DNA from: a virus
Lineage: Duplodnaviria > Heunggongvirae > Uroviricota > Caudoviricetes
IMG/VR virus record: IMGVR_UViG_2802429231_000009
Length of the DNA: 35,292 nt
Strand: one strand, 5' to 3'
Part shown: positions 4,532 to 26,338 of the stretch, in pieces
Numbering within the stretch: position 1 is the first letter of the stretch
How the letters are laid out: every line of letters begins with the position of its first letter
Notes under the pieces: model-generated
Seen by the model: the letters and a program-made list of their open reading frames with translations, nothing else
Told to the model about the DNA's origin: nothing
Database searches by the model: none
Made by a program: the position numbers and the translations under genes

Positions 4532-5385
4532 GCACCATCCTGAAATGGGCGGGTAATAAAACCACCATTATGTCCGAACTGAAAAAATACCTTCCTGCTG
4601 GCACGCGACTGGTTGAACCTTTCGCGGGTTCTTGTGCTGTGATGATGGAGACGGATTACCCCAGCTATCTGGTTGCGGATATTAATCCTGATTTAATCAA
4701 CCTCTATAAAAAGGTTGCTGCTGATTGTGAGGCGTTTATATCTCGTGCCAGAGCTTTATTTGAGGAAGCAAACAGAGAGGTGGCTTATTACAACATAAGG
4801 CAGGAGTTTAATTACTCCACTGAAATTACTGATTTCATGAAAGCGGTATATTTTCTGTATCTCAATCGTCATGGTTACCGTGGGCTATGTCGCTATAACA
4901 AGAGCGGGTATTTCAACATTCCCTACGGTAATTATAAAAATCCGTATTTCCCTGAAAAAGAAATTCGCGCATTTGCAGAGAAAGCCCAGCGGGCAACGTT
5001 TATCTGCGCCAGCTTTGATGAAACGCTGGCGATGTTGAAGGCGGGGGATGTGGTGTATTGCGATCCGCCTTATGACGGTACGTTTTCCGGCTATCACACT
5101 GATGGCTTCACTGAAGATGACCAGTATCACCTGGCATCCGTTCTTGAACATCGATCATCTGAAGGTCATCCGGTCATTGTTTCTAACAGTGACACATCCC
5201 TGATCCGTTCGCTGTATCGCAATTTTACTCACCACTACATCAAGGCAAAACGCAGCATCGGCGTGGCAGCTGGTGAGAGTAAATCTGCAACAGAAATCAT
5301 CGCTGTTTCCGGGCCGCGCTGCTGGGTAGGATTTGATCCTTCGCGTGGCGTGGATTGTTCCGTCGTGTACGGAGTGCGTGCATGA
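4528..5385 (+). CDS. dam: DNA adenine methyltransferase (Dam-like, N6-adenine)
   Basis: N-terminus [18 protein letters not shown] segment and DPPY catalytic motif (VYCDPPYDG). Start ATG 4528 overlaps upstream stop. Confidence 0.85.
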
Positions 5386-7796
5386 GCCATGCTGATATGA
5401 ACAACTGCAGCGGCTTTAACGAGGTCGCCGCAGCATTCTCATGGAACAGCCCGAAAAAGGCCATTAACCCTTATCTGGACCCGGCGGAAGTTGCGCCGGT
5501 TTCTGCGCTTTCAAACCTGATCACTCTGTACGCTGCCGATAACGAGCAGGAACAACTGCGCCGCGAGGCACTGAGTGATCAGGTCTGGGAGCGTTATTTC
5601 TTTAATGAATCCCGTGATCCTGTCCAACGCGAAATGGAGCAGGATAAGCTAATTAGCCGGGCAAAGCTGGCGCATGAGCAGCAGCGTTTTAATCCAGACA
5701 TGGCCATTCTGGCGGACGTCAACGCCCAGCCTTCCCATATCAGCAAGCCGCTGATGCAACGTATTAAATACTTCAGCAGCCTGGGCAGGCCAAAGGCTTA
5801 TTCCCGCTATTTGCGTGAGACGATTAAGCCATGCTTGGAACGACTGGAGCATGTACGCGACAGTCAGCTATCCACTTCTTTTCGCTTTATGGCAAGCCAT
5901 GAAGGGCTGGACGGCCTGCTGATCCTGCCTGAAATGAGTCAGGATCAGGTGAAACGCCTGTCCACCTTGGTAGCTGCGCATATGAGCATGTGCCTTGATA
6001 CAGCTTGTGGCGATTTGTATGCCACCGATGATGTTACGCCAGAAGAAATCCGCAAGACATGGGAAAAGGTGGCAGCGGAAACCCTGCGTCTGGATGTTAT
6101 CCCGCCTGCGTTTGAGCAACTCTGTCGGAAAAGAAACCGCCGTAAACCCGTGCCTTATGAACTCATTCCGGGTTCGCTGGCGCGTATGTTATGCGCCGAC
6201 TGGTGGTATCGGAAATTATGGAAGATGCGTTGCGAATGGCGGGAAGAGCAGTTGCGTGCTGTTTGCCTGGTCAGCAAAAAAGCATCTCCCTATGTCAGCT
6301 ATGAAGCCGTGATGCATAAACGTGAGCAGCGCCGTAAGTCGCTGGAGTTTTTCCGTTCTCATGAACTGGTGAACGAAGACGGCGACACGCTGGATATGGA
6401 AGACGTGGTAAACGCCAGCAGCAGCAACCCTGCGCATCGCCGCAATGAGATGATGGCCTGTGTTAAAGGTCTGGAGCTTATCGCGGAAATGCGTGGTGAC
6501 TGCGCCGTTTTCTACACCATCACCTGTCCGTCACGTTTCCATTCCACGCTAAATAACGGCAGGCCCAACCCGACCTGGACAAATGCGACGGTAAGACAAA
6601 GCAGTGATTATCTGGTCGGTATGTTTGCTGCATTTCGTAAGGCTATGCACAAAGCCGGGTTGCGCTGGTATGGCGTGCGGGTGGCTGAGCCGCATCATGA
6701 CGGCACAGTTCACTGGCACCTGTTGTGTTTCATGCGCAAAAAAGACCGCCGCGCCATTACTGCATTGTTGCGTAAGTTTGCCATCCGTGAAGACCGCGAG
6801 GAGCTGGGCAATAACACGGGGCCGCGCTTTAAGTCTGAGCTGATAAACCCGCGCAAAGGAACGCCGACAAGCTACATTGCGAAATATATCAGTAAGAATA
6901 TTGACGGGCGTGGTCTGGCTGGCGAGATCAGTAAGGAAACGGGTAAATCCCTGCGTGATAACGCTGAATACGTTAATGCCTGGGCGTCTCTGCATCGTGT
7001 TCAGCAATTCCGCTTCTTTGGCATTCCGGGGCGTCAGGCTTACCGTGAACTGCGATTGCTGGCTGGTCAGGCGGCAAGGCAACAGGGTGACAAAAAAGCA
7101 GGTGCGCCGGTACTGGATAACCCGCGCCTTGATGCCATCCTGGCTGCTGCTGATGCTGGTTGTTTTGCCACCTACATCATGAAGCAGGGCGGCGTACTGG
7201 TTCCCCGCAAATATCACCTCATCAGAACCGCTTATGAAATCAACGAAGAGCCAACCGCCTATGGCGATCACGGTATTCGTATTTATGGCATCTGGTCACC
7301 CATTGCAGAGGGCAAGATCTGCACTCATGCAGTGAAGTGGAAAATGGTTCGTAAGGCCGTTGACGTTCAGGAGGCGGCAGCCGACCAGGGCGCTTGCGCC
7401 CCTTGGACTCGTGGCAATAACTGTCCCCTTGCGGAAAATTTGAACCAACAGGAGAAAGATAAATCAGCTGATGGGGACACCAGAACGGACATTACCCGCA
7501 TGGATGACAAGGAGTTGCACGATTACCTGCACAGTATGAGCAAAAAAGAGCGCCGGGAACTGGCAGCAAGGTTACGCCTGGTGAAGCCGAAACGGCGTAG
7601 AGACTACAAACAGCGAATTACAGACCATCAACGACAGCAGCTCGTCTATGAACTGAAGTCCAGAGGATTTGATGGCAGCGAGAAAGAGGTCGATTTACTC
7701 CTTCGCGGTGGCAGTATTCCGTCAGGAGCAGGCCTGCGTATCTTCTATCGGAACCAGCGTTTGCAGGAAGATGATAAGTGGCGGAATCTGTATTAA
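5382..7796 (+). CDS. A: Rolling-circle replication initiator (P2 gpA / 186 RepA, HUH endonuclease)
   Basis: HUH motif in [10 protein letters not shown] and tyrosine motif [12 protein letters not shown]. About 804 aa. ATG at 5382 overlaps dam stop (ATGA), preferred over the upstream start at 5355. Confidence 0.9.
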
Positions 7797-7948: not shown

Positions 7949-8137
7949 ATGCAGGACTATTTTTTGGAGTCTTTGAAGCTCCAGCGCATTGATTTTTTTC
8001 TTAAGCTTGTAGCGGCTAGTGAGTGTAGTGATGAAGAGAAGGGGCTGGCCCTGCAGTGGGTTTCTGAACTGACAGATGAACTCATGGCAAAAATCAGAAC
8101 CCACGAATACAACCGCTCAATGGATGTCATCAGCTGA
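7949..8137 (+). CDS. Small SOS-regulated protein, possible Tum-like antirepressor component
   Basis: 62-aa ORF immediately downstream of the LexA box and upstream of the DinI-like gene. Confidence 0.45.
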   Translation: MQDYFLESLKLQRIDFFLKLVAASECSDEEKGLALQWVSELTDELMAKIRTHEYNRSMDVIS

Positions 8138-8147
8138 GGTGACTTTT

Positions 8148-8381
8148 ATGCGCATTGAAATAATGATCGATAAAGAGCAGAAGATTAGCCAGTCTACACT
8201 GGACGCCCTTGAATCCGAGCTTTACCGCAATCTGCGCCCCCTGTATCCCAAAACGGTAATTCGTATCCGCAAAGGTAGCTCTAACGGTGTGGAACTGACC
8301 GGACTGCAACTGGACGAAGAAAGAAAACAAGTGATGAAAATTATGCAGAAGGTGTGGGAAGACGACAGCTGGCTGCATTAA
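8148..8381 (+). CDS. DinI-family protein
   Basis: MRIEIMIDKEQKISQSTLDALESELYRNL...KVWEDDSWL resembles E. coli DinI (MRIEV...ETWESADDWF). GAGGTGA RBS before the ATG at 8148. Confidence 0.78.
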   Translation: MRIEIMIDKEQKISQSTLDALESELYRNLRPLYPKTVIRIRKGSSNGVELTGLQLDEERKQVMKIMQKVWEDDSWLH

Positions 8382-8820: not shown

Positions 8821-9393
8821 GTGCAGGTAGTTCATATAGGGTTTCATAACTGCCTTAATCGTGGCAGTTATGAGACGATACGGCAAAGCGTACCCTTTTT
8901 AAGCCGTTCAGGCCCTAAACAATGGTTAACTCAAGGTTACTATTTTTGGACTGATGACCCATACTGGGCTCATCAGTGGAACGAAGGTCATGATACGGTC
9001 ATTAGTGAATTTTCTATCACCTTTGATTCAAAGGATGAGTTGCTTGATTTGGTTGGAAATGCTCGAGATATCAGGCAATTTGAAGCTATGCGTCAGAAAG
9101 TTGCCAGTACTTTGACTCGAATGAGCGCCTTGCATATCACAGTCAATCAGGTCATTAGCTTTTTTAGAGAGCTCGAGCAATCTGATGATTTTAAAGGCGT
9201 ATTTCCATATGCTGCTGTTAAGGCACAAGATAGTACGAAAGTGTCTAATCTTATAAGACTTAACTTTGTAGATGAGCGCCCAGAACAGATGGTTTCATTT
9301 ACCCGTCAGCAAATGTGTGTTTATGAACATGCTCGAGGTAAGATAGAGTTTAGAAGATTTATCTTTCCAGAGCATTTCTGTGAGAAGGATTAA
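8821..9393 (+). CDS. Cargo gene 1: uncharacterised 190-aa protein, candidate toxin/effector
   Basis: GTG start with AAGAGAGGA RBS, in an AT-rich island. No family recognised; contains an R-x4-H (RMSALH) motif of uncertain meaning. Confidence 0.55.
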   Translation: MQVVHIGFHNCLNRGSYETIRQSVPFLSRSGPKQWLTQGYYFWTDDPYWAHQWNEGHDTVISEFSITFDSKDELLDLVGNARDIRQFEAMRQKVASTLTRMSALHITVNQVISFFRELEQSDDFKGVFPYAAVKAQDSTKVSNLIRLNFVDERPEQMVSFTRQQMCVYEHARGKIEFRRFIFPEHFCEKD

Positions 9394-9402
9394 GGAGGAA
9401 AA

Positions 9403-9636
9403 ATGCTTTCCTTTGAACAAAGAATGGCCTTACTTAACAAGGCATTACAGCAGTATACTCCTGAGTCGCTTTATGAAAAATTAAGCTCGTACCCGGCTTA
9501 TGGACCAACAATCGTAAGCTACGAGCTTCCAAGCTCCGAAGGGTTCATTACATTGAGACCACGTCTGATCAATCATGCTGCTGAACGTTCAGTGGATTTC
9601 TTTTCAGATGATACTGAATTGGATTTAGCGGCCTGA
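9403..9636 (+). CDS. Cargo gene 2: uncharacterised 77-aa protein, candidate antitoxin
   Basis: Strong AAGGAGGA RBS; 9-nt gap from gene 1 and 2-nt gap to gene 3; acidic C-terminus. Confidence 0.5.
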   Translation: MLSFEQRMALLNKALQQYTPESLYEKLSSYPAYGPTIVSYELPSSEGFITLRPRLINHAAERSVDFFSDDTELDLAA

Positions 9637-9638
9637 CG

Positions 9639-10028
9639 ATGAAACTAAGATTACGGGATAATACTGTTACTCGACTGTTGTTTGTCGATGCTGAAGGGCG
9701 CAAAATCGAATCTGGTTTTGCGCTTCGATTTAAGCCCATTTTTGATGAAAATCCGCGCGAATTTTCAGTATTGTTTGATTTTTATTACATTACTGAGAAT
9801 GATCGGGCATTACGAGTCGAGTTTCAAAGTGTTTTTGAAACAGATAAAGACATTGACGATTCTTTTAAAGAATCGAAGTTTCCAGTTGTTAATGCTCCTG
9901 CGATATCGTTCCCGTTTTTACGTTCGTTTGTTGCCAATTTTTTGATGACAAGTGGGTATACACCGATCCTGCTTCCTAGCTTTAACTTTACAACTTTTGA
10001 ACAGGATATCGGGAAGTTTCCTAACTGA
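9639..10028 (+). CDS. Cargo gene 3: SecB-like chaperone family protein (putative)
   Basis: C-terminal NAPAISFPFLRSFVANFLMTSGYTPILLPSFNF parallels E. coli SecB [32 protein letters not shown] (from memory). 129 aa, translationally coupled to gene 2. Confidence 0.55.
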   Translation: MKLRLRDNTVTRLLFVDAEGRKIESGFALRFKPIFDENPREFSVLFDFYYITENDRALRVEFQSVFETDKDIDDSFKESKFPVVNAPAISFPFLRSFVANFLMTSGYTPILLPSFNFTTFEQDIGKFPN

Positions 10029-10066: not shown

Positions 10067-11110
10067 TCAATTTTTATCTAAGCTCATGGTGTAAGGCTCG
10101 AAGCGGATCACTTCTTCACCAAGCCAGTCGTTAAGCTCCTGTAGCCTTTTCTGTAGTGGGATAAGTTCGTTGCGAACAAAAACTTTGCTGGCTTTCTCTA
10201 CATCCCCAAAACCCCCAACATTATTCGGCATAATCCCCATCATCTGTGGCGGAACACGATGCGCGGCCATCATGTCATCACGACTCACGTTCTTGATGTT
10301 CAGAAATTCATCTTTCGCTGCGACTTCTGACAACGGGATGATCTGAAGCCCGTCCTTTTTGCCGTTAGGCGAGTACATAAACAGGTTGCGGAAGTTACCC
10401 GGTCCTTTGGCGCTTTTCATCGCGTGGCGGAGGTTGTTCACGTCCTCCTGGTTCTGCGCGGCATCGGTCATGTACATGATGAAGCCAGCATGACTGCCGT
10501 TTATGTAATACTTTCGACGGAACAGCGTGGCGGACTCATTGAGCAGGGCGGACGGAATAGCAGAAAGATAGCCGGGCAGGCCATAGATCTCCTGATTTAT
10601 GTCCGGTTCCATCAGATGGAAAATGCTGCCTTTCGTGAACTGATACGGCTGCGTGGTCATGCCGTATTGCACAAACCAGTAGGTATCCAGGTCTAACCCG
10701 CGTCGGGTGTATTTTGCCAGCGCAGGCTCAAGGGCGATAACTTCACTGAAGCGGTTAGTGCGTTTCTCCAGGTAGGCGTTACCAAATACCAGATAGTCCT
10801 GCACAAAACGCGAAAAAGCCTGCTGGCTGAGCAGCGGGTGAGGGATGTAGGTGCTGGTCAGAATGTTGCACTTCACCGCAATTGGTGAACTGTGATGCAC
10901 GGCAGCGCGGAAGGTGCGCGCCAGTCCGTCAAAGCTGACAGGAGGCTCATACCAGCGATCTGTCTGTACGCATTCCACATAGTCCAGCAGTTCGCGGCGG
11001 TCAAGTACAGGAACGGGATCACCGAAGCTGAATGCTTCGGCTGAAGTCTGGCTTTTATGCTTGAGCTGATTCGTCGCCGCAGCGCGGTTTTTCTTACTCT
11101 TTCCCATCAA
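10067..11110 (-). CDS. Q: Portal protein (P2 gpQ-like)
   Basis: 347 aa, P2-typical size and position, overlapping the terminase ATPase gene stop. Confidence 0.85.
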   Translation of the reverse strand: MMGKSKKNRAAATNQLKHKSQTSAEAFSFGDPVPVLDRRELLDYVECVQTDRWYEPPVSFDGLARTFRAAVHHSSPIAVKCNILTSTYIPHPLLSQQAFSRFVQDYLVFGNAYLEKRTNRFSEVIALEPALAKYTRRGLDLDTYWFVQYGMTTQPYQFTKGSIFHLMEPDINQEIYGLPGYLSAIPSALLNESATLFRRKYYINGSHAGFIMYMTDAAQNQEDVNNLRHAMKSAKGPGNFRNLFMYSPNGKKDGLQIIPLSEVAAKDEFLNIKNVSRDDMMAAHRVPPQMMGIMPNNVGGFGDVEKASKVFVRNELIPLQKRLQELNDWLGEEVIRFEPYTMSLDKN

Positions 11111-20721: not shown

Positions 20722-21319
20722 TCTGCTGCCACCGGGTTCAACTTCACTGGAGCGCCGACTGGCGCAAACCTGTAGCGGGATTTCTGATTTGCAGGTGCCG
20801 CTGCGTGACTTGTGGAATCCGGCTACCTGTCCGGTCAGCTTCCTGCCTTATCTCGCCTGGGCGTTCTCTGTGGATCGCTGGGACGAGGGCTGGACAGAAA
20901 GCGTCAAACGCCAGGTAGTGAAGGATGCTTTTTATATTCATCAGCATAAAGGAACCACCAGTGCCGTGCGGCGGGTGGTGGAACCGTTCGGATTCCTGAT
21001 CCGCATTATTGAGTGGTGGCAGACTGGAGAAACACCGGGCACGTTTCGCCTGGACATCGGCGTGCAGGACCAGGGCATCACTGAAGATACCTATCTGGAA
21101 CTTGAGCGGCTGATAAGCGATGCCAAACCATGTAGCCGTCACATGATCGGCATGTCCATCAATCTGCAAACCAGTGGCCCGCACTGGGTAGGGGCCGCCA
21201 GCTATCTTGGTGAAGAAATCACGATCTATCCGTATATCAACGAAACAATTATTTCTGGCGGCACCGCGCATGAAGGCGGGGCGGTCCATGTTATTGACAC
21301 AATGAGAGTGAATCCATGA
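20714..21319 (+). CDS. I: Tail protein I (P2 gpI-like)
   Basis: 201 aa; overlaps J stop. Confidence 0.75.
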   Translation: MNSLLPPGSTSLERRLAQTCSGISDLQVPLRDLWNPATCPVSFLPYLAWAFSVDRWDEGWTESVKRQVVKDAFYIHQHKGTTSAVRRVVEPFGFLIRIIEWWQTGETPGTFRLDIGVQDQGITEDTYLELERLISDAKPCSRHMIGMSINLQTSGPHWVGAASYLGEEITIYPYINETIISGGTAHEGGAVHVIDTMRVNP

Positions 21320-22845
21320 GCACAAAATTTTATACCCTGCTGACGGATATTGGCGCGGCGAAACTTGCCAGCGCCGCCGCGCTCGGTGTGCCGTTAAAAA
21401 TTACCCATATGGCGGTCGGCGATGGCGGCGGAACATTACCAACGCCGGACGCAAAGCAGACTGCACTGGTAAATGAGAAACGCCGGGCTGCGCTGAATAT
21501 GCTCTATATCGACCCGCAAAACAGCAGCCAGATTATTGCTGAACAGGTGATCCCTGAAAACGAGGGCGGTTGGTGGATACGTGAAGTGGGCCTGTTTGAT
21601 GAATCCGGGGCATTGATTGCCGTGGGCAACTGCCCGGAAAGCTATAAGCCGCAACTGGCTGAAGGCAGCGGGCGCACCCAGACCGTGCGCATGGTGTTGA
21701 TTACCAGCAGCACGGACAATATCACCCTGAAAATCGACCCTGCCGTCGTGCTGGCAACCCGCAAGTATGTGGATGATAAGGTACTGGAGCTGAAGGTGTA
21801 CGTGGATGATCAGATGGCAAAACATCTTGCAGCACCGGACCCGCATTCACAGTATGCACCCAAAGAAAGTCCTACGTTTACCGGGACACCCAAAGCGCCA
21901 ACGCCAGCGGCGGGGAATAATACCACGCAGGTTGCGACCACCGCGTTTGTTCAGGCGGCACTGACGGCTCTTATTAATGGTGCGCCAGCCACGCTGGACA
22001 CGCTGAAAGAAATTGCCGCAGCCATAAACAATGACCCGAAATTCAGTACCACCATTAACAATGCGCTGGCACTGAAAGCGCCGCTGTCGAGTCCGGCACT
22101 CACCGGAACGCCAACCGCACCGACTGCGGCACAGTCGGTCAACAATACACAGATTGCCACCACGGCATTTGTGAAATCGGCGATTGCGGCAATGGTGGGT
22201 TCTGCACCTGCGGCACTGGATACACTGAACGAACTGGCGGCGGCGCTGGGGAATGACCCGAACTTTGCCACGACAATGCTTAATGCACTGGCAGGTAAAC
22301 AACCGCTGGACAATACGCTGACTAATTTGAGTGGAAAGGATGTTGCTGGTCTTCTCGCATACCTTGGTTTGGGAGAAGGTTCTGCATTACCTGTAGGAGT
22401 ACCAGTTCCGTGGCCTTCAGCCACTCTGCCGACAGGCTGGTTGAAATGCAATGGCGCTGCCTTTGATAAGGTTAAATATCCCCGTCTTGCTACAGCATAT
22501 CCATCAGGGAAACTACCTGATCTCCGTGGTGAGTTTATTCGTGGCTGGGATGACGGACGAGGCGTTGATGCTGGACGTGCTTTATTGAGCATTCAGACTG
22601 GGATGCTGGAAAAACATCGCCATATTGTTGTTGCCAACGATGGGTATGATTCAAAAGAGGAATGGGAACTGGCGACAATCTTCAGAAGAGCATACACGCA
22701 AGGCCGGGGGCTTGATGCTGCTGATGTCGGAGGGACTCTGATTCCATCACCAACGCTACATACACGAGGGAGTATTGGTAACACAGGTGGAAGCGAAACC
22801 CGTCCGCGAAATATTGCATTTAACTTTATCGTGAGGGCTGCATAA
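21316..22845 (+). CDS. H: Tail fibre protein H
   Basis: 509 aa with a conserved-looking N-terminal domain, tandem Ala/Thr-rich repeats (TTAFV...DTL...AAA..NDP.F.TT) and a distinct C-terminal domain. Confidence 0.8.
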   Translation: MSTKFYTLLTDIGAAKLASAAALGVPLKITHMAVGDGGGTLPTPDAKQTALVNEKRRAALNMLYIDPQNSSQIIAEQVIPENEGGWWIREVGLFDESGALIAVGNCPESYKPQLAEGSGRTQTVRMVLITSSTDNITLKIDPAVVLATRKYVDDKVLELKVYVDDQMAKHLAAPDPHSQYAPKESPTFTGTPKAPTPAAGNNTTQVATTAFVQAALTALINGAPATLDTLKEIAAAINNDPKFSTTINNALALKAPLSSPALTGTPTAPTAAQSVNNTQIATTAFVKSAIAAMVGSAPAALDTLNELAAALGNDPNFATTMLNALAGKQPLDNTLTNLSGKDVAGLLAYLGLGEGSALPVGVPVPWPSATLPTGWLKCNGAAFDKVKYPRLATAYPSGKLPDLRGEFIRGWDDGRGVDAGRALLSIQTGMLEKHRHIVVANDGYDSKEEWELATIFRRAYTQGRGLDAADVGGTLIPSPTLHTRGSIGNTGGSETRPRNIAFNFIVRAA

Positions 22846-23447
22846 TGGATAACGCTGTATTAAATAGCGAGCTTATTGCCACGAAGGCGGGGAATATTAC
22901 TGTCTATAACTATGATGGAGAAACACGGGAATATATTTCCACTTCAAATGAATATCTTGCCGTTGGTGTCGGTATCCCGGCATATTCCTGTTTAGATGCT
23001 CCTGGCACATATAAGGCTGGTTATGCAATCTGCCGTTCAGTAGATTTAAACTCATGGGAATATATGCCAGACCATCGCGGTGAAATTATCTATAGCACCG
23101 AAACAGGAGAAGCAAAAGAAATCACGGTGCCGGGTAATTATCCTGAAAATACAACCACTATCGCCCCGTTAACGCCATACGATAAATGGGATGGTGAGAA
23201 ATGGGTGACGGATACCGAGGCACAGCATAGCGCCGCAGTAGACGCAGCAGAAGCACAGCGTCAGTCACTGATTGATGCTGCAATGGCTTCCATTAGTCTG
23301 ATTCAGTTGAAATTGCAGGCCGGGCGGAAGCTGATGCAGGCAGAGACCACCCGACTTAACACTGTGCTGGATTACATCGATGCGGTGACGACAACGGATA
23401 CCAGCACTGCGCCGGATGTCATCTGGCCTGAACTGTCGGAGGCGTAG
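22845..23447 (+). CDS. G: Tail fibre assembly chaperone G (Tfa)
   Basis: 200 aa; start in TAATG overlap with H; C-terminus ...TSTAPDVIWPELSEA typical of Tfa proteins. Confidence 0.8.
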   Translation: MDNAVLNSELIATKAGNITVYNYDGETREYISTSNEYLAVGVGIPAYSCLDAPGTYKAGYAICRSVDLNSWEYMPDHRGEIIYSTETGEAKEITVPGNYPENTTTIAPLTPYDKWDGEKWVTDTEAQHSAAVDAAEAQRQSLIDAAMASISLIQLKLQAGRKLMQAETTRLNTVLDYIDAVTTTDTSTAPDVIWPELSEA

Positions 23448-23640
23448 GTCATTCAATATCTGGAGCACGGGGTGTATCGACCAGTTCTAGTGCATCCAGA
23501 TAACTCACCCACGAATTATATTGTTCCAGTTCGCCACCTTTCAGGCGATAAATAGCTGCTTTATCAGACCATTGCTTACTGTTTATAAACTCGTTAGCCT
23601 AGTCTATTCGCAGTTGTTTCTCTGCTTCGGTAGCAACCAC
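23448..23640 (-). pseudogene. Inverted 3' fragment of an alternative tail fibre assembly gene
   Basis: Minus-strand translation gives ...VVATEAEKQLRID*ANEFINSKQWSDKAAIYRLKGGELEQYNSWVSYLDALELVDTPRAPDIE* with an internal stop and no start. Confidence 0.5.
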
Positions 23641-23690: not shown

Positions 23691-23712
23691 CCACCATTTT
23701 ATATAAATGGTG
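23691..23712. terminator. Hairpin downstream of the 290-aa cargo gene
   Basis: CCACCATTT-TATATA-AATGGTGG perfect inverted repeat just 3' of the minus-strand gene. Confidence 0.3.
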
Positions 23713-23720
23713 GTTCGCAG

Positions 23721-24593
23721 TTAACTAGCATGTAATAAGTTGAACAGGTTTTTAGTTACTTCGTTTTTAGTACTAAAAAACATATCTTTAAGGTCCGGTA
23801 ATGCAAAGGCAGCATTTTGGTCATTCGGTACAACAATAGGAGGCTCATATCCGTTGTCATACATTTTCTTTAAAGCGGCTACTATTTTTGTCTGATTTTG
23901 ACTGAATTCTTTCATGTCAATAAAAATTTCTCCAGATAGGGTCCCATCATCTTCACGTAGTATCGCTGGTTTGACACGACATATCTGATCCATTTCTCCA
24001 GTAGAAAAACCGGCAATCGCTGCATTAAATAACAAAGATGAAGTAGCCCATTTTTCATATAGTTTTTTGATAGCCATGCTTCTGATTTTTTTATCGTTGA
24101 TATATCCAATGCCACTGGCCAAAACTTCGGTTAATGGATTTTCCCCGCGAGTTACTCCAGACCAATAGTTGTGCATCCAGGGCGCATTTTGCTCAAGCGG
24201 AGAGCCGAGATAATCAGTGATCCACTCTGAGTCCACCTCTGTAAAGTTCAAACCATGAAAATCAATTTCTGCAATAGTGTTTTTATAGTTTTGATTTAAA
24301 CCCAAACGGTCAATTGCTATTTCAGCCATTTCTTTTGTTTTGAATAGATATATTCCGGTTAGGCGGGAAACTTTATCTCTGAAATTGTCTGAGCGTACCT
24401 TTTCAAGAGCTAACTCATTTTGTAATTTTTCATTGTGATTATCTGATAAGTATTTTCTTACTAGATTGTAGAACCAAATAGATACTCCAAACTCACTTTT
24501 ATAACAGATTGATTCAATTCTTCCTATTGCAACCTCCCAGGCAACAATTGGATTGTTTAAATTTAAGTAAGCATATAGTTTTCTCTGTTCCAT
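23721..24593 (-). CDS. Uncharacterised 290-aa cargo protein at the P2 Z/fun-equivalent position
   Basis: AT-rich ORF with AAGGAAAA RBS; lies between tail fibre genes and sheath gene; no family recognised. Confidence 0.6.
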   Translation of the reverse strand: MEQRKLYAYLNLNNPIVAWEVAIGRIESICYKSEFGVSIWFYNLVRKYLSDNHNEKLQNELALEKVRSDNFRDKVSRLTGIYLFKTKEMAEIAIDRLGLNQNYKNTIAEIDFHGLNFTEVDSEWITDYLGSPLEQNAPWMHNYWSGVTRGENPLTEVLASGIGYINDKKIRSMAIKKLYEKWATSSLLFNAAIAGFSTGEMDQICRVKPAILREDDGTLSGEIFIDMKEFSQNQTKIVAALKKMYDNGYEPPIVVPNDQNAAFALPDLKDMFFSTKNEVTKNLFNLLHAS

Positions 24594-24753
24594 TTTTATT
24601 TTCCTTATAGATGCTATGAAGGTTATTATTACATAAATGTTCGATAAATGTTTTTAAGTTTTAACTTCGTTTCGGTGCCAATAAATATACATTACAAGTG
24701 AAATTTATCAAGGTAACAAAAGGAGAGCTAATGCTAATAGGCTATGTACTCCA

Positions 24754-25023
24754 ATGGGCCGTTTCTTTTTTCATGTCATGGGTGCCCTGGCTGAAATGGA
24801 ACGCGAACTGATAGTTGAACGTACCAGGGCGGGGCTTGCTGCAGCTCGCGCCAAAGGCAGAGTAGGTGGACGCCGTCCTAAGTTGACCATCGAACAGTGG
24901 GCACAGATTGGACGCTTACTCGAGGCCGGAGAATCAAGACAGCGTATTGCACTGATTTTTGATGTGGGTGTTTCCACAATTTATAGAAAATTTCCGGCAA
25001 ATAAGAGTAATGAATCTCCCTGA
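24754..25023 (+). pseudogene. Serine DNA invertase (Hin/Gin/Pin/Cin family), C-terminal fragment only
   Basis: FFHVMGALAEMERELIVERTRAGLAAARAKGRVGGRRPKLT...VSTIYRKFP matches the C-terminal HTH region of invertases; catalytic N-terminal domain absent. Confidence 0.6.
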
Positions 25024-25165: not shown

Positions 25166-26338
25166 ATGGCTCAGGATTACCACCACGGGGTGCGCGTTGT
25201 TGAAGTCAACGAAGGCACCCGATCCATTACCACGGTGAGCACCGCCATCGTGGGCATGGTCTGCACGGGCGATGATGCCGATGCAAAAATGTTTCCTCTT
25301 AATAAACCCGTGCTGATCACTGATGTACTGACCGCCAGCGGTAAAGCGGGTGAGTCCGGCACGCTGGCCCGTTCGCTGGATGCCATCGCTGACCAGGCAA
25401 AACCCGTGACCGTTGTTGTGCGTGTGCCGCAGGGTGAAACGGAAGAAGAAACCACGACTAATATTATCGGCGCAGTGACCGCTGAAGGTAAAAAAACAGG
25501 CATGAAAGCCCTGTTATCTGCCCAGACACAGCTCGGCGTTAAACCGCGCATTCTCGGCGTGCCAGGTCACGATAACAAAGCCGTTGCGACTGAGTTGCTG
25601 AGCGTGGCGCAAAGCCTGCGTGGGTTTGCTTACCTGTCAGCGTATGGCTGCAAGACGGTACAGGAGGCGATCACTTACCGTGAAAACTTCAGCCAGCGCG
25701 AAGGGATGCTGATCTGGCCTGACTTTACTGGCTGGGACACGGTGCTGAATGACGAAGCAACGGCATATGCCACCGCCCGTGCGCTCGGTCTGCGCGCCAA
25801 AATTGATGAGCAGACCGGGTGGCACAAGAGCCTGTCCAACGTAGGCGTGAACGGTGTCACCGGAATTTCTGCTGATGTGTTCTGGGATCTGCAGGACCCG
25901 GCAACCGATGCAGGTCTGCTTAACCAGAACGACGTCACCACCCTTATCCGCAAGGACGGTTTCCGCTTCTGGGGTTCCCGCTGTCTGAGTGATGATCCGC
26001 TCTTTGCCTTCGAAAACTACACCCGCACGGCGCAGGTGCTGACGGACACGATGGCAGAAGCGCACATGTGGGCGGTGGACAAACCGCTTAACCCGTCGCT
26101 GGCCCGCGACATTATCGAAGGTATCCGCGCCAAAATGCGCAGTCTGGTAAGCCAGGGCTATCTCATTGGTGGTGATTGCTGGCTGGATGAGTCGGTGAAC
26201 GACAAAGACACGCTGAAAGCCGGAAAACTCACCATCGACTATGACTACACGCCAGTGCCGCCACTTGAAAATCTGATGCTGCGCCAGCGCATCACCGATC
26301 AGTACCTGGTGAATTTCGCCAGCCAGGTCAGCGCGTAA
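25166..26338 (+). CDS. FI: Tail sheath protein (P2 FI-like)
   Basis: 390 aa; AGGAGG RBS; synteny. Confidence 0.85.

Follow-up and report, generated by a model that had tools for sequence, protein, structure and literature searches.

What does a solitary, AT-rich gene do in the interval of a P2-like prophage where P2 itself carries fun(Z)? The question is raised by the IMG/VR virus record IMGVR_UViG_2802429231_000009 (Caudoviricetes), a stretch of 35,292 nucleotides that is referred to here, at its full length, as the window. The window holds a complete 186/Fels-2-type P2-like prophage, which runs from integrase, CI, CII, gpA and portal genes to gpD and is followed by the chromosomal genes ybjL and ybjM. 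Between its tail fibre assembly gene and its tail sheath gene lies an open reading frame (ORF) of 290 codons on the minus strand (23721-24593), the cargo gene of this study. An earlier note, made from the letters of the sequence, had described it as inserted cargo of no recognisable family and as a candidate single-gene defence or exclusion protein. Is this ORF a real gene, and has it been inserted? To which proteins is its product related? And does that product act against phages, or does it serve the lysogen, or the phage, in some other way? Here we find that the cargo gene is horizontally acquired into a known cargo slot, that its product is a divergent relative of DUF2441 proteins with an ADP-ribosyltransferase (ART) fold, and that it is, by prediction, a credible candidate for a one-protein anti-phage system.

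Results

An acquired gene between the G and FI equivalents

The interval is bounded on the left by the tail fibre assembly gene, equivalent to P2 G (22845-23447, plus strand; Caudo_TAP, E-value 9e-29), which follows the tail fibre gene (21316-22845; Phage_tail_fib and Collar). On the right it is bounded by the tail sheath gene, equivalent to P2 FI (25166-26338, plus strand; Phage_sheath_1, E-value 2e-32). P2 fun(Z) lies in the equivalent G-FI interval, on the same antisense strand and directly upstream of the F-operon promoter (pF/FI). The slot has been named 'moron position 2' (PMC3573123) and the 'Z/fun hotspot' (PMC13586616; also the iLund4u preprint), and position, strand and these names together bear out the equation with Z/fun that the earlier note had made. 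Like Z/fun-type cargo, the gene is antisense, sits between G and FI and is variable among related prophages. Like a moron, it has an atypical composition and is accompanied by promoter-like and terminator-like signals, the promoter being a consensus match only.

The coordinates, strand and ATG start first read from the sequence all hold, as does the AT-richness. The gene has a GC content of 0.357, and its GC content at third codon positions (GC3) is 0.309 against 0.655 in the adjacent sheath gene; local GC content over the cargo region is 0.28-0.42, compared with about 0.55 on either side. From the base composition of the gene, the probability that an open frame of this length would arise by chance is estimated at about 1e-9. 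The ratio of nonsynonymous to synonymous substitution rates (dN/dS) is 0.13-0.17 within E. coli and about 0.1 against the Citrobacter homologue, a comparison in which dS is saturated. The cargo ORF is under purifying selection. Its length, its more than 500 homologous clusters and its low dN/dS identify it as a real gene. A 99%-identical shortened variant of 226 aa (P0010, eight member sequences), which covers 58% of the cargo protein, is present in public assemblies; it suggests that in some strains the gene is now and then inactivated, or that the assemblies are broken there.

Of 5426 complete E. coli genomes, just 7 have the whole cargo segment, whereas about 1060 have the invertase/sheath flank. 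Because the gene is AT-rich, self-contained and rare relative to its flanks, and because most of an invertible tail-fibre cassette has been replaced, it is inserted cargo, as had been proposed.

Relatives and fold of the cargo protein

The product is an acidic, soluble protein of 33.3 kDa (pI 5.55), in which sequence analysis finds no transmembrane or other hydrophobic segment and no signal peptide. Scanned directly, it has no match in Pfam or NCBIfam and matches 0 families of PADLOC-DB v2.0.0 at E<=10. In PHROGs it matches only two families of unknown function, over residues 40-160, and tblastn against 50,697 phage genomes, P2 included, gives no match. Relatives are nonetheless numerous. A k-mer-seeded search returned 103 of full length, many with weak DUF2441 matches, and an exhaustive profile search of 1.84 billion representative proteins returned 511 clusters at E<=1e-3 and 146 at E<=1e-30. 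Nearly all clusters of the family are 270-310 aa long, and the whole profile is covered.

Conservation and fold were assessed with a profile from an 81-sequence alignment, in which identity falls to 22%. The family profile matches one solved structure, 2AUA (BC2332 of Bacillus cereus), with an E-value of 1.1e-11 over residues 54-165, and Foldseek agrees with the assignment of a BC2332-type fold. Both homology to BC2332, the structural representative of DUF2441, and a split beta-sheet ART fold were thus found for the cargo protein. DUF2441 (PF10386) is placed by Pfam in the ADP-ribosyl clan, and 'BC2332-like' (d.166.1.6) is placed by SCOP within the ADP-ribosylation superfamily. The BC2332 site has also been matched, by ProFunc analysis, to the catalytic sites of diphtheria toxin, exotoxin A and cholix toxin. 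The Pfam DUF2441 hidden Markov model (HMM; cutoff 25 bits) does not match the window protein even at E<=10. When run against 37 relatives it gives 17 weak matches (best E-value 5.8e-4); three peripheral relatives exceed the Pfam cutoff, at 41.0, 32.3 and 25.2 bits, and a Legionella member of the family is named a DUF2441 protein by NCBI. Because of the 2AUA match, the peripheral members above the cutoff and the NCBI naming, the cargo protein is placed, on sequence comparison, in a divergent, longer branch of DUF2441, as a member that scores below the threshold. The earlier statement that no family could be recognised is therefore superseded by the profile and Foldseek searches.

The protein is divided into three parts, all encoded on the minus strand. 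Residues 1-53 (24435-24593) are a family-specific N-terminal segment that carries an AWEVAIGR motif (W19 conserved at 99%, G24 at 95% and S38 at 98%) and lies outside the BC2332 match. Residues 54-165 (24099-24434) are the DUF2441/BC2332-like ART-fold core. All five residues that are strictly invariant over the 81 sequences (R67, R77, D121, Y143 and E156) fall in this core, along with E60, E64 and S76. Residues 166-290 (23724-24098) are a faster-evolving C-terminal half with no fold or family match, in which only P266-D267 is near-invariant. The complete set of near-invariant residues is W19, G24, S38, E60, E64, S76, F84, A90, W97, W124, W139, G146, P153, G161, P266 and D267. Mean pairwise identity is 0.335 over the N-terminal 165 residues and 0.223 over the C-terminal 125, and in a Pantoea plasmid relative of equal length similarity is detectable only over residues 1-165. 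The residues identical in BC2332 are E60, E64, R67, S76-R77-L78, Y82, D121, Y143-W144 and E156, which include all of the invariant ones.

The positions of these residues define a candidate triad. R77 lies before the strand formed by residues 81-84, D121-S122 is at the end of strand 107-121 and is followed by a helix, and E156, preceded by Y143, is at the start of strand 155-165; R77, D121-S122, Y143 and E156 are all invariant or nearly so. The order R77-D121/S122-E156, with spacings of 44 and 35 residues, appears to resemble that of R-S-E enzymes such as iota toxin. In addition, there is a weak, non-significant second HMM stretch, which aligns residues 197-245 of the window protein, in the C-terminal hairpin region of the family, with residues 35-87 of 2AUA, its N-terminal part. 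BC2332 and the cargo protein could be circularly permuted, with the 'C-terminal domain' adding strands to the ART fold.

Defence prediction and a model of action

A single residue separates the window protein from the RefSeq protein WP_059331867.1, which Table S10 ('uncharacterized_clusters') of the DefensePredictor study labels a 'Predicted novel defense gene' with no homology to known defence proteins and gives a mean log-odds of 5.07 (sd 1.19, range 2.89-6.31), where the strict cutoff of the authors is 4. The WP accessions of the cargo protein do not occur in the main texts of the literature that was searched. Association with cargo hotspots and defence islands, together with this independent machine-learning prediction, makes a defence role plausible.

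How might such a protein act? The cargo ORF is a moron in moron position 2, probably transcribed on its own, and is antisense to the late tail operons. Its product is a soluble cytoplasmic protein of three parts: the N-terminal motif, the ART-fold core and the variable C-terminal half. The core would bind NAD+ through R77, D121(-S122), Y143 and E156, and would then either ADP-ribosylate a macromolecule of the phage or the host or cleave NAD+. This NAD+ chemistry would stop infection, through abortive infection or superinfection exclusion. The variable C-terminal half would silence the enzyme in the uninfected lysogen and would provide the specificity for a trigger or a target. Four elements of this scheme are predictions: that the protein binds NAD+, that it is catalytic, that it has a defence phenotype, and that the C-terminal half plays such a role.

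A single-polypeptide, antitoxin-less, NAD+-using anti-phage or exclusion effector is suggested by the fold and the invariant active-site-like residues, by the precedents of DarT and CmdT, and by a single-gene layout that lacks an antitoxin. It is also suggested by the pairing of a conserved core with a variable tail, by recurrence of the family in cargo slots and defence islands, and by the machine-learning score. We put this reading forward tentatively, as the best supported of those considered but with somewhat less than an even chance of being right. A broader proposal would give DUF2441/BC2332, an orphan clade of structural genomics for 20 years, its first function, that of a self-regulated, antitoxin-less ART-fold immune effector whose fast-evolving C-terminal half senses phage infection, and which shuttles among both P2 slots, plasmids and integron-like arrays, possibly with small serine recombinases. 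This proposal is more doubtful, and we would sooner expect it to fail than to hold in full.

Genomic settings of the family

Across about 20 family loci no adjacent gene is shared, and since no neighbour is conserved the unit is the single gene, as the earlier note had supposed. The flanks of the cargo gene give no Rfam match at E<=1, and repeat arrays, whether tandem or inverted, are absent from them; an RNA antitoxin or a repeat partner was considered and rejected because there was neither an Rfam match nor any meaningful repeat. The locus thus has no conserved adjacent antitoxin, as gene or as RNA, of the kind that defines a toxin-antitoxin (TA) system.

The G-FI slot is occupied by the family in E. 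coli and in Citrobacter (60% identity). The family also occupies the other P2 slot, between gpA/Ogr and the portal gene: next to a PLD/NgoFVII-type gene in a Moritella prophage; together with genes for a Ser/Thr kinase, an ORC/CDC6-like protein and an AAA_15/21 ATPase in the decayed remnant of a P2 prophage in Pantoea; and next to PDC-M38A/B in a viral contig. In Yersinia, an HP1-like prophage has a homologue at its edge. In a 45-kb viral contig (L023, 8457-12756) a homologue and a 130-aa ORF are located between terS and terL, which is an unusual position for cargo. Further homologues are located in a cassette region of Vibrio chromosome 2, beside ParE/Phd; in a Nitrospirota island with a methyltransferase and two TA pairs; in a small Candidimonas island with RelE and recombinase fragments; in Amphritea, 2.6 kb from Hachiman HamB; on a Legionella conjugative plasmid, between a HEPN protein, RelE and a type I-F CRISPR-Cas system; and on a Pantoea megaplasmid, beside umuDC and an AAA ATPase. 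Taxonomically the distribution of the family is patchy, with members in gamma- and beta-proteobacteria, a cyanobacterium, Nitrospirota, Chloroflexi and an actinobacterial metagenome-assembled genome.

Small serine recombinases or invertases adjoin family members in four independent contexts, those of E. coli, Citrobacter, Candidimonas and the Legionella plasmid (window 24732-25023, L028 7266-7823, L011 9356-9739 and L033 4393-4950). On the Legionella plasmid the recombinase ends 14 nt before the family gene. The family gene and a small serine recombinase may form a co-mobile unit, or the adjacency may merely reflect the abundance of invertases in hotspots. Translesion polymerase genes of the umuDC type adjoin homologues at two unrelated loci, a viral contig and the Pantoea megaplasmid (L024 5059-6327 and 7453-8259; L032 6084-7726), and a SRAP peptidase gene is also present in L024.

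Expression signals and the frozen inversion switch

A candidate sigma-70-like promoter (24684-24711, minus strand; TTGATA-16 nt-TATATT, 10/12) is located about 90 nt upstream of the ATG, and its hexamers are kept in E. coli strain C4 (L002). A Shine-Dalgarno sequence, AAGGA (24602-24606, minus strand), lies 8 nt before the ATG of the cargo gene. At the other end, a terminator-like hairpin of 9 bp (CCACCATTT-loop-AAATGGTGG; 23691-23713, minus strand) begins 8 nt past the stop codon. Terminator-like sites in the region number 4, against 1.4 expected.

The cargo gene had been described as flanked by decayed tail-fibre and invertase fragments. The debris is real, being annotated as pseudogenes by RefSeq in the 99%-identical prophage of E. 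coli GN02461 (L001). The left fragment (23449-23598, minus strand) proves, however, to be a remnant of a tail fibre assembly gene and not of a tail fibre gene; it is in inverted orientation and lacks its N-terminus. The right fragment (24732-25023, plus strand) is indeed decayed, and can now be described more closely as an internally deleted serine invertase pseudogene. Its start codons, ATGCTAATAGGCTATGTA (MLIGYV), are kept at 24732-24749 and are joined out of frame to codon ~97. The retained part, codons ~97-189 (24748-25023), encodes the C-terminal end of the Resolvase domain and HTH_7, and is annotated in GN02461 as a partial HTH/recombinase. Because the region of the catalytic serine has been lost, the tail-fibre inversion switch is frozen.

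In related prophages, such as that of E. coli W, this position is occupied by an inverted tail-fibre/assembly cassette, followed by an intact serine invertase of 189 aa directly before the sheath gene. Homology to that arrangement restarts at window position 24746, which is 290 nt into the invertase gene. Replacement of the N-terminal half of the invertase by the cargo was considered and rejected, since the start codons survive and an internal deletion must have occurred. Strain C4 has 44 nt of the invertase 5' end and 106 nt more of the gene than the window, and because C4 keeps more of the gene the allele in the window is a nested further deletion. The 5' stub of the invertase and the sequence upstream of it are unlike the corresponding alleles in E. 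coli W and in Citrobacter. This may be a sign that the cargo and a foreign invertase 5' end were acquired together. The cargo gene and the invertase are divergent in the window, as they are in Citrobacter sedlakii, where the 60%-identical homologue is accompanied by an intact invertase and the sheath gene. Near the invertase start there is no hix/gix-like crossover site within 9 mismatches of the hixL consensus, and no transposon-like terminal repeats were found around the insert.

Other cargo of the prophage

A complete PD-T4-9 A/B/C system on the plus strand (8821-9393, 9403-9636 and 9639-10028; PADLOC E-values 3e-96, 5e-39 and 1e-60) fills moron position 1, with gpA (5355-7796) on one side and the portal gene (10067-11110) on the other. 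The toxin of CmdTAC is an mRNA ADP-ribosyltransferase. PD-T4-9 has been equated with CmdTAC (iLund4u preprint). It is thus possible that each of the two P2 slots of this prophage holds an ART-fold cargo gene, the two being unrelated. A relationship between the cargo protein and the prophage's own PD-T4-9_A/CmdT was rejected, with an hhalign probability of 0.3%. A DinI-like ORF (8076-8381, plus strand; Pfam E-value 1e-22) lies in the low-GC cargo region between gpA and PD-T4-9. In GN02461 (L001, 616-1416) a TIR-domain gene that the window lacks is located between the virion-morphogenesis gene and baseplate V. Its position is a third variable cargo slot in this prophage lineage.

Discussion

Several observations weigh against the cargo gene being an NAD+-using anti-phage effector. 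No activity or phenotype has been reported for any protein of the cargo family or of DUF2441. The assignment of R77, Y143 and E156 as an ART catalytic triad is drawn from their order and from secondary structure, and the canonical H-Y-E, R-S-E (STS, ExE) or RES motif is absent as such from the cargo protein. The DefensePredictor log-odds of 5.07, with its minimum of 2.89, is close to the cutoff; the overall validation rate in that study was 45%, and WP_059331867.1 is absent from its tables of cloned and validated units (S6-S8). The neighbourhoods are mixed: a bulk neighbour scan of family loci showed no single enriched family, and housekeeping genes flank several of the loci. Promoter-like sites in the region number 6 against 4.8 in shuffled controls, so that the promoter is a consensus match at chance density and evidence for it is weak.

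Location itself can also be read in another way, and this gives the main rival explanation. Is the gene a lysogenic-conversion or host-fitness moron, like neaT or sopE, whose ART-fold product modifies a bacterial or environmental target to the advantage of the lysogen? In CFT073, neaT has the same slot, orientation, single-gene layout and AT-richness, and is a bacteraemia fitness factor (PMC3573123). The Z/fun hotspot has been called 'mixed purpose' (iLund4u preprint), and P2 hotspots also hold virulence cargo such as CDT. However, a virulence role tied to particular hosts fits poorly with the spread of the family over lineages that are free-living or environmental (Nitrospirota, cyanobacteria, Chloroflexi, marine Vibrio and Moritella), and the cargo protein has neither a signal peptide nor a membrane segment. 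Repeated co-occurrence with TA, CRISPR, Hachiman and PDC genes, occupation of both P2 cargo slots and the machine-learning prediction of defence also speak against a fitness role, which we consider unlikely.

A catalytically inert, ART-like scaffold that acts by binding, for example as a decoy, regulator or sensor, in whichever biological role, is likewise unlikely. Across 81 divergent members, five polar or aromatic residues never vary, and BC2332 has them too; such a pattern is typical of an active site, and the ProFunc match of the BC2332 site to those of DT, ExoA and cholix toxin points in the same direction.

The effector might instead benefit the phage, as an ART for counter-defence that modifies host immunity or machinery in the manner of AcrF11 or of T4 Alt, ModA and ModB. 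AcrF11 is a neighbour of the family, and small phage-borne relatives exist. On the other hand, the gene runs antisense to the late operons, with promoter-like and terminator-like signals of its own, an arrangement that suits expression in the lysogen. Many members are found in settings other than phages, including cassette arrays, chromosomal islands and plasmids, and tblastn of the window protein gave no hit in the 50,697 phage genomes. The full-length, two-part architecture is also unlike that of small phage proteins. We regard counter-defence as quite improbable. Least probable is the toxin of an addiction or stabilisation module that retains the cargo or prophage through an unannotated antitoxin (a small RNA or micro-ORF): ART-fold toxins such as DarT, RES and CmdT are usually TA toxins and the family often adjoins TA loci and mobile-element genes, but it has no conserved adjacent ORF, its flanks have no Rfam match or repeat array, and the neighbouring TA pairs (ParE/Phd, PemK/RHH, RelE/HTH) are each complete alone.

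If the cargo gene does encode an NAD+-dependent effector, a one-gene system would be added to the anti-phage repertoire, and DUF2441, which is known only from an unannotated crystal structure of 2005, would gain a function and an active site. A toxin-like ART-fold enzyme that is tolerated with no antitoxin would also be a compact model for auto-inhibition and the sensing of triggers. The locus is also an example of the entry of cargo into P2-like phages: gain of the cargo coincides with loss of the tail-fibre inversion switch, as if the prophage had given up a host-range device in exchange for a gene of benefit to the lysogen. Should the defence prediction fail, this would be the second case, after neaT, in which the slot is not specific to defence, and it would temper inference of guilt by location.

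Relation to known systems

The slot, and the general kind of system to which ART-fold effectors in prophage hotspots belong, are already known; neither the family nor its two-part architecture without an antitoxin had been characterised before. The closest parallel in position is P2 Fun(Z), which blocks the growth of T5. It too is non-essential, single-gene lysogenic-conversion cargo in the G-FI slot, antisense and upstream of the F-operon promoter. However, Fun(Z) has 528 aa, shows no sequence similarity to the cargo protein by tblastn and belongs to a different family. The neaT gene of CFT073 prophage phi-b0847 is likewise a strongly AT-rich, phyletically rare, antisense single ORF in moron position 2, but it encodes an unrelated protein, a membrane acyltransferase (PF01757) with a host-fitness phenotype.

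In proposed chemistry the nearest systems are CmdT of CmdTAC/PD-T4-9 and DarT of DarTG, which are ART-fold effectors carried on prophages and in hotspots and which stop phage by NAD+-dependent ADP-ribosylation of nucleic acid. The RES-domain toxins (ParT, MbcT, VPA0770 and NatT) differ in that they do not reach any sequence threshold, that they always come with an Xre-type antitoxin and that they have an R-E-S triad that is not reproduced in the cargo protein. The ADP-ribosylating anti-CRISPR AcrF11, a weak match of 137 aa, acts in the opposite biological direction, that of anti-defence. With respect to DUF2441, the cargo family is a separate lineage of 270-310 aa and 511 clusters, and the window protein has no Pfam DUF2441 score. 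In BC2332 the core is at the C-terminus (residues 102-213 of 224), whereas in the cargo protein the AWEVAIGR motif stands before the core and a variable half of about 125 residues follows it.

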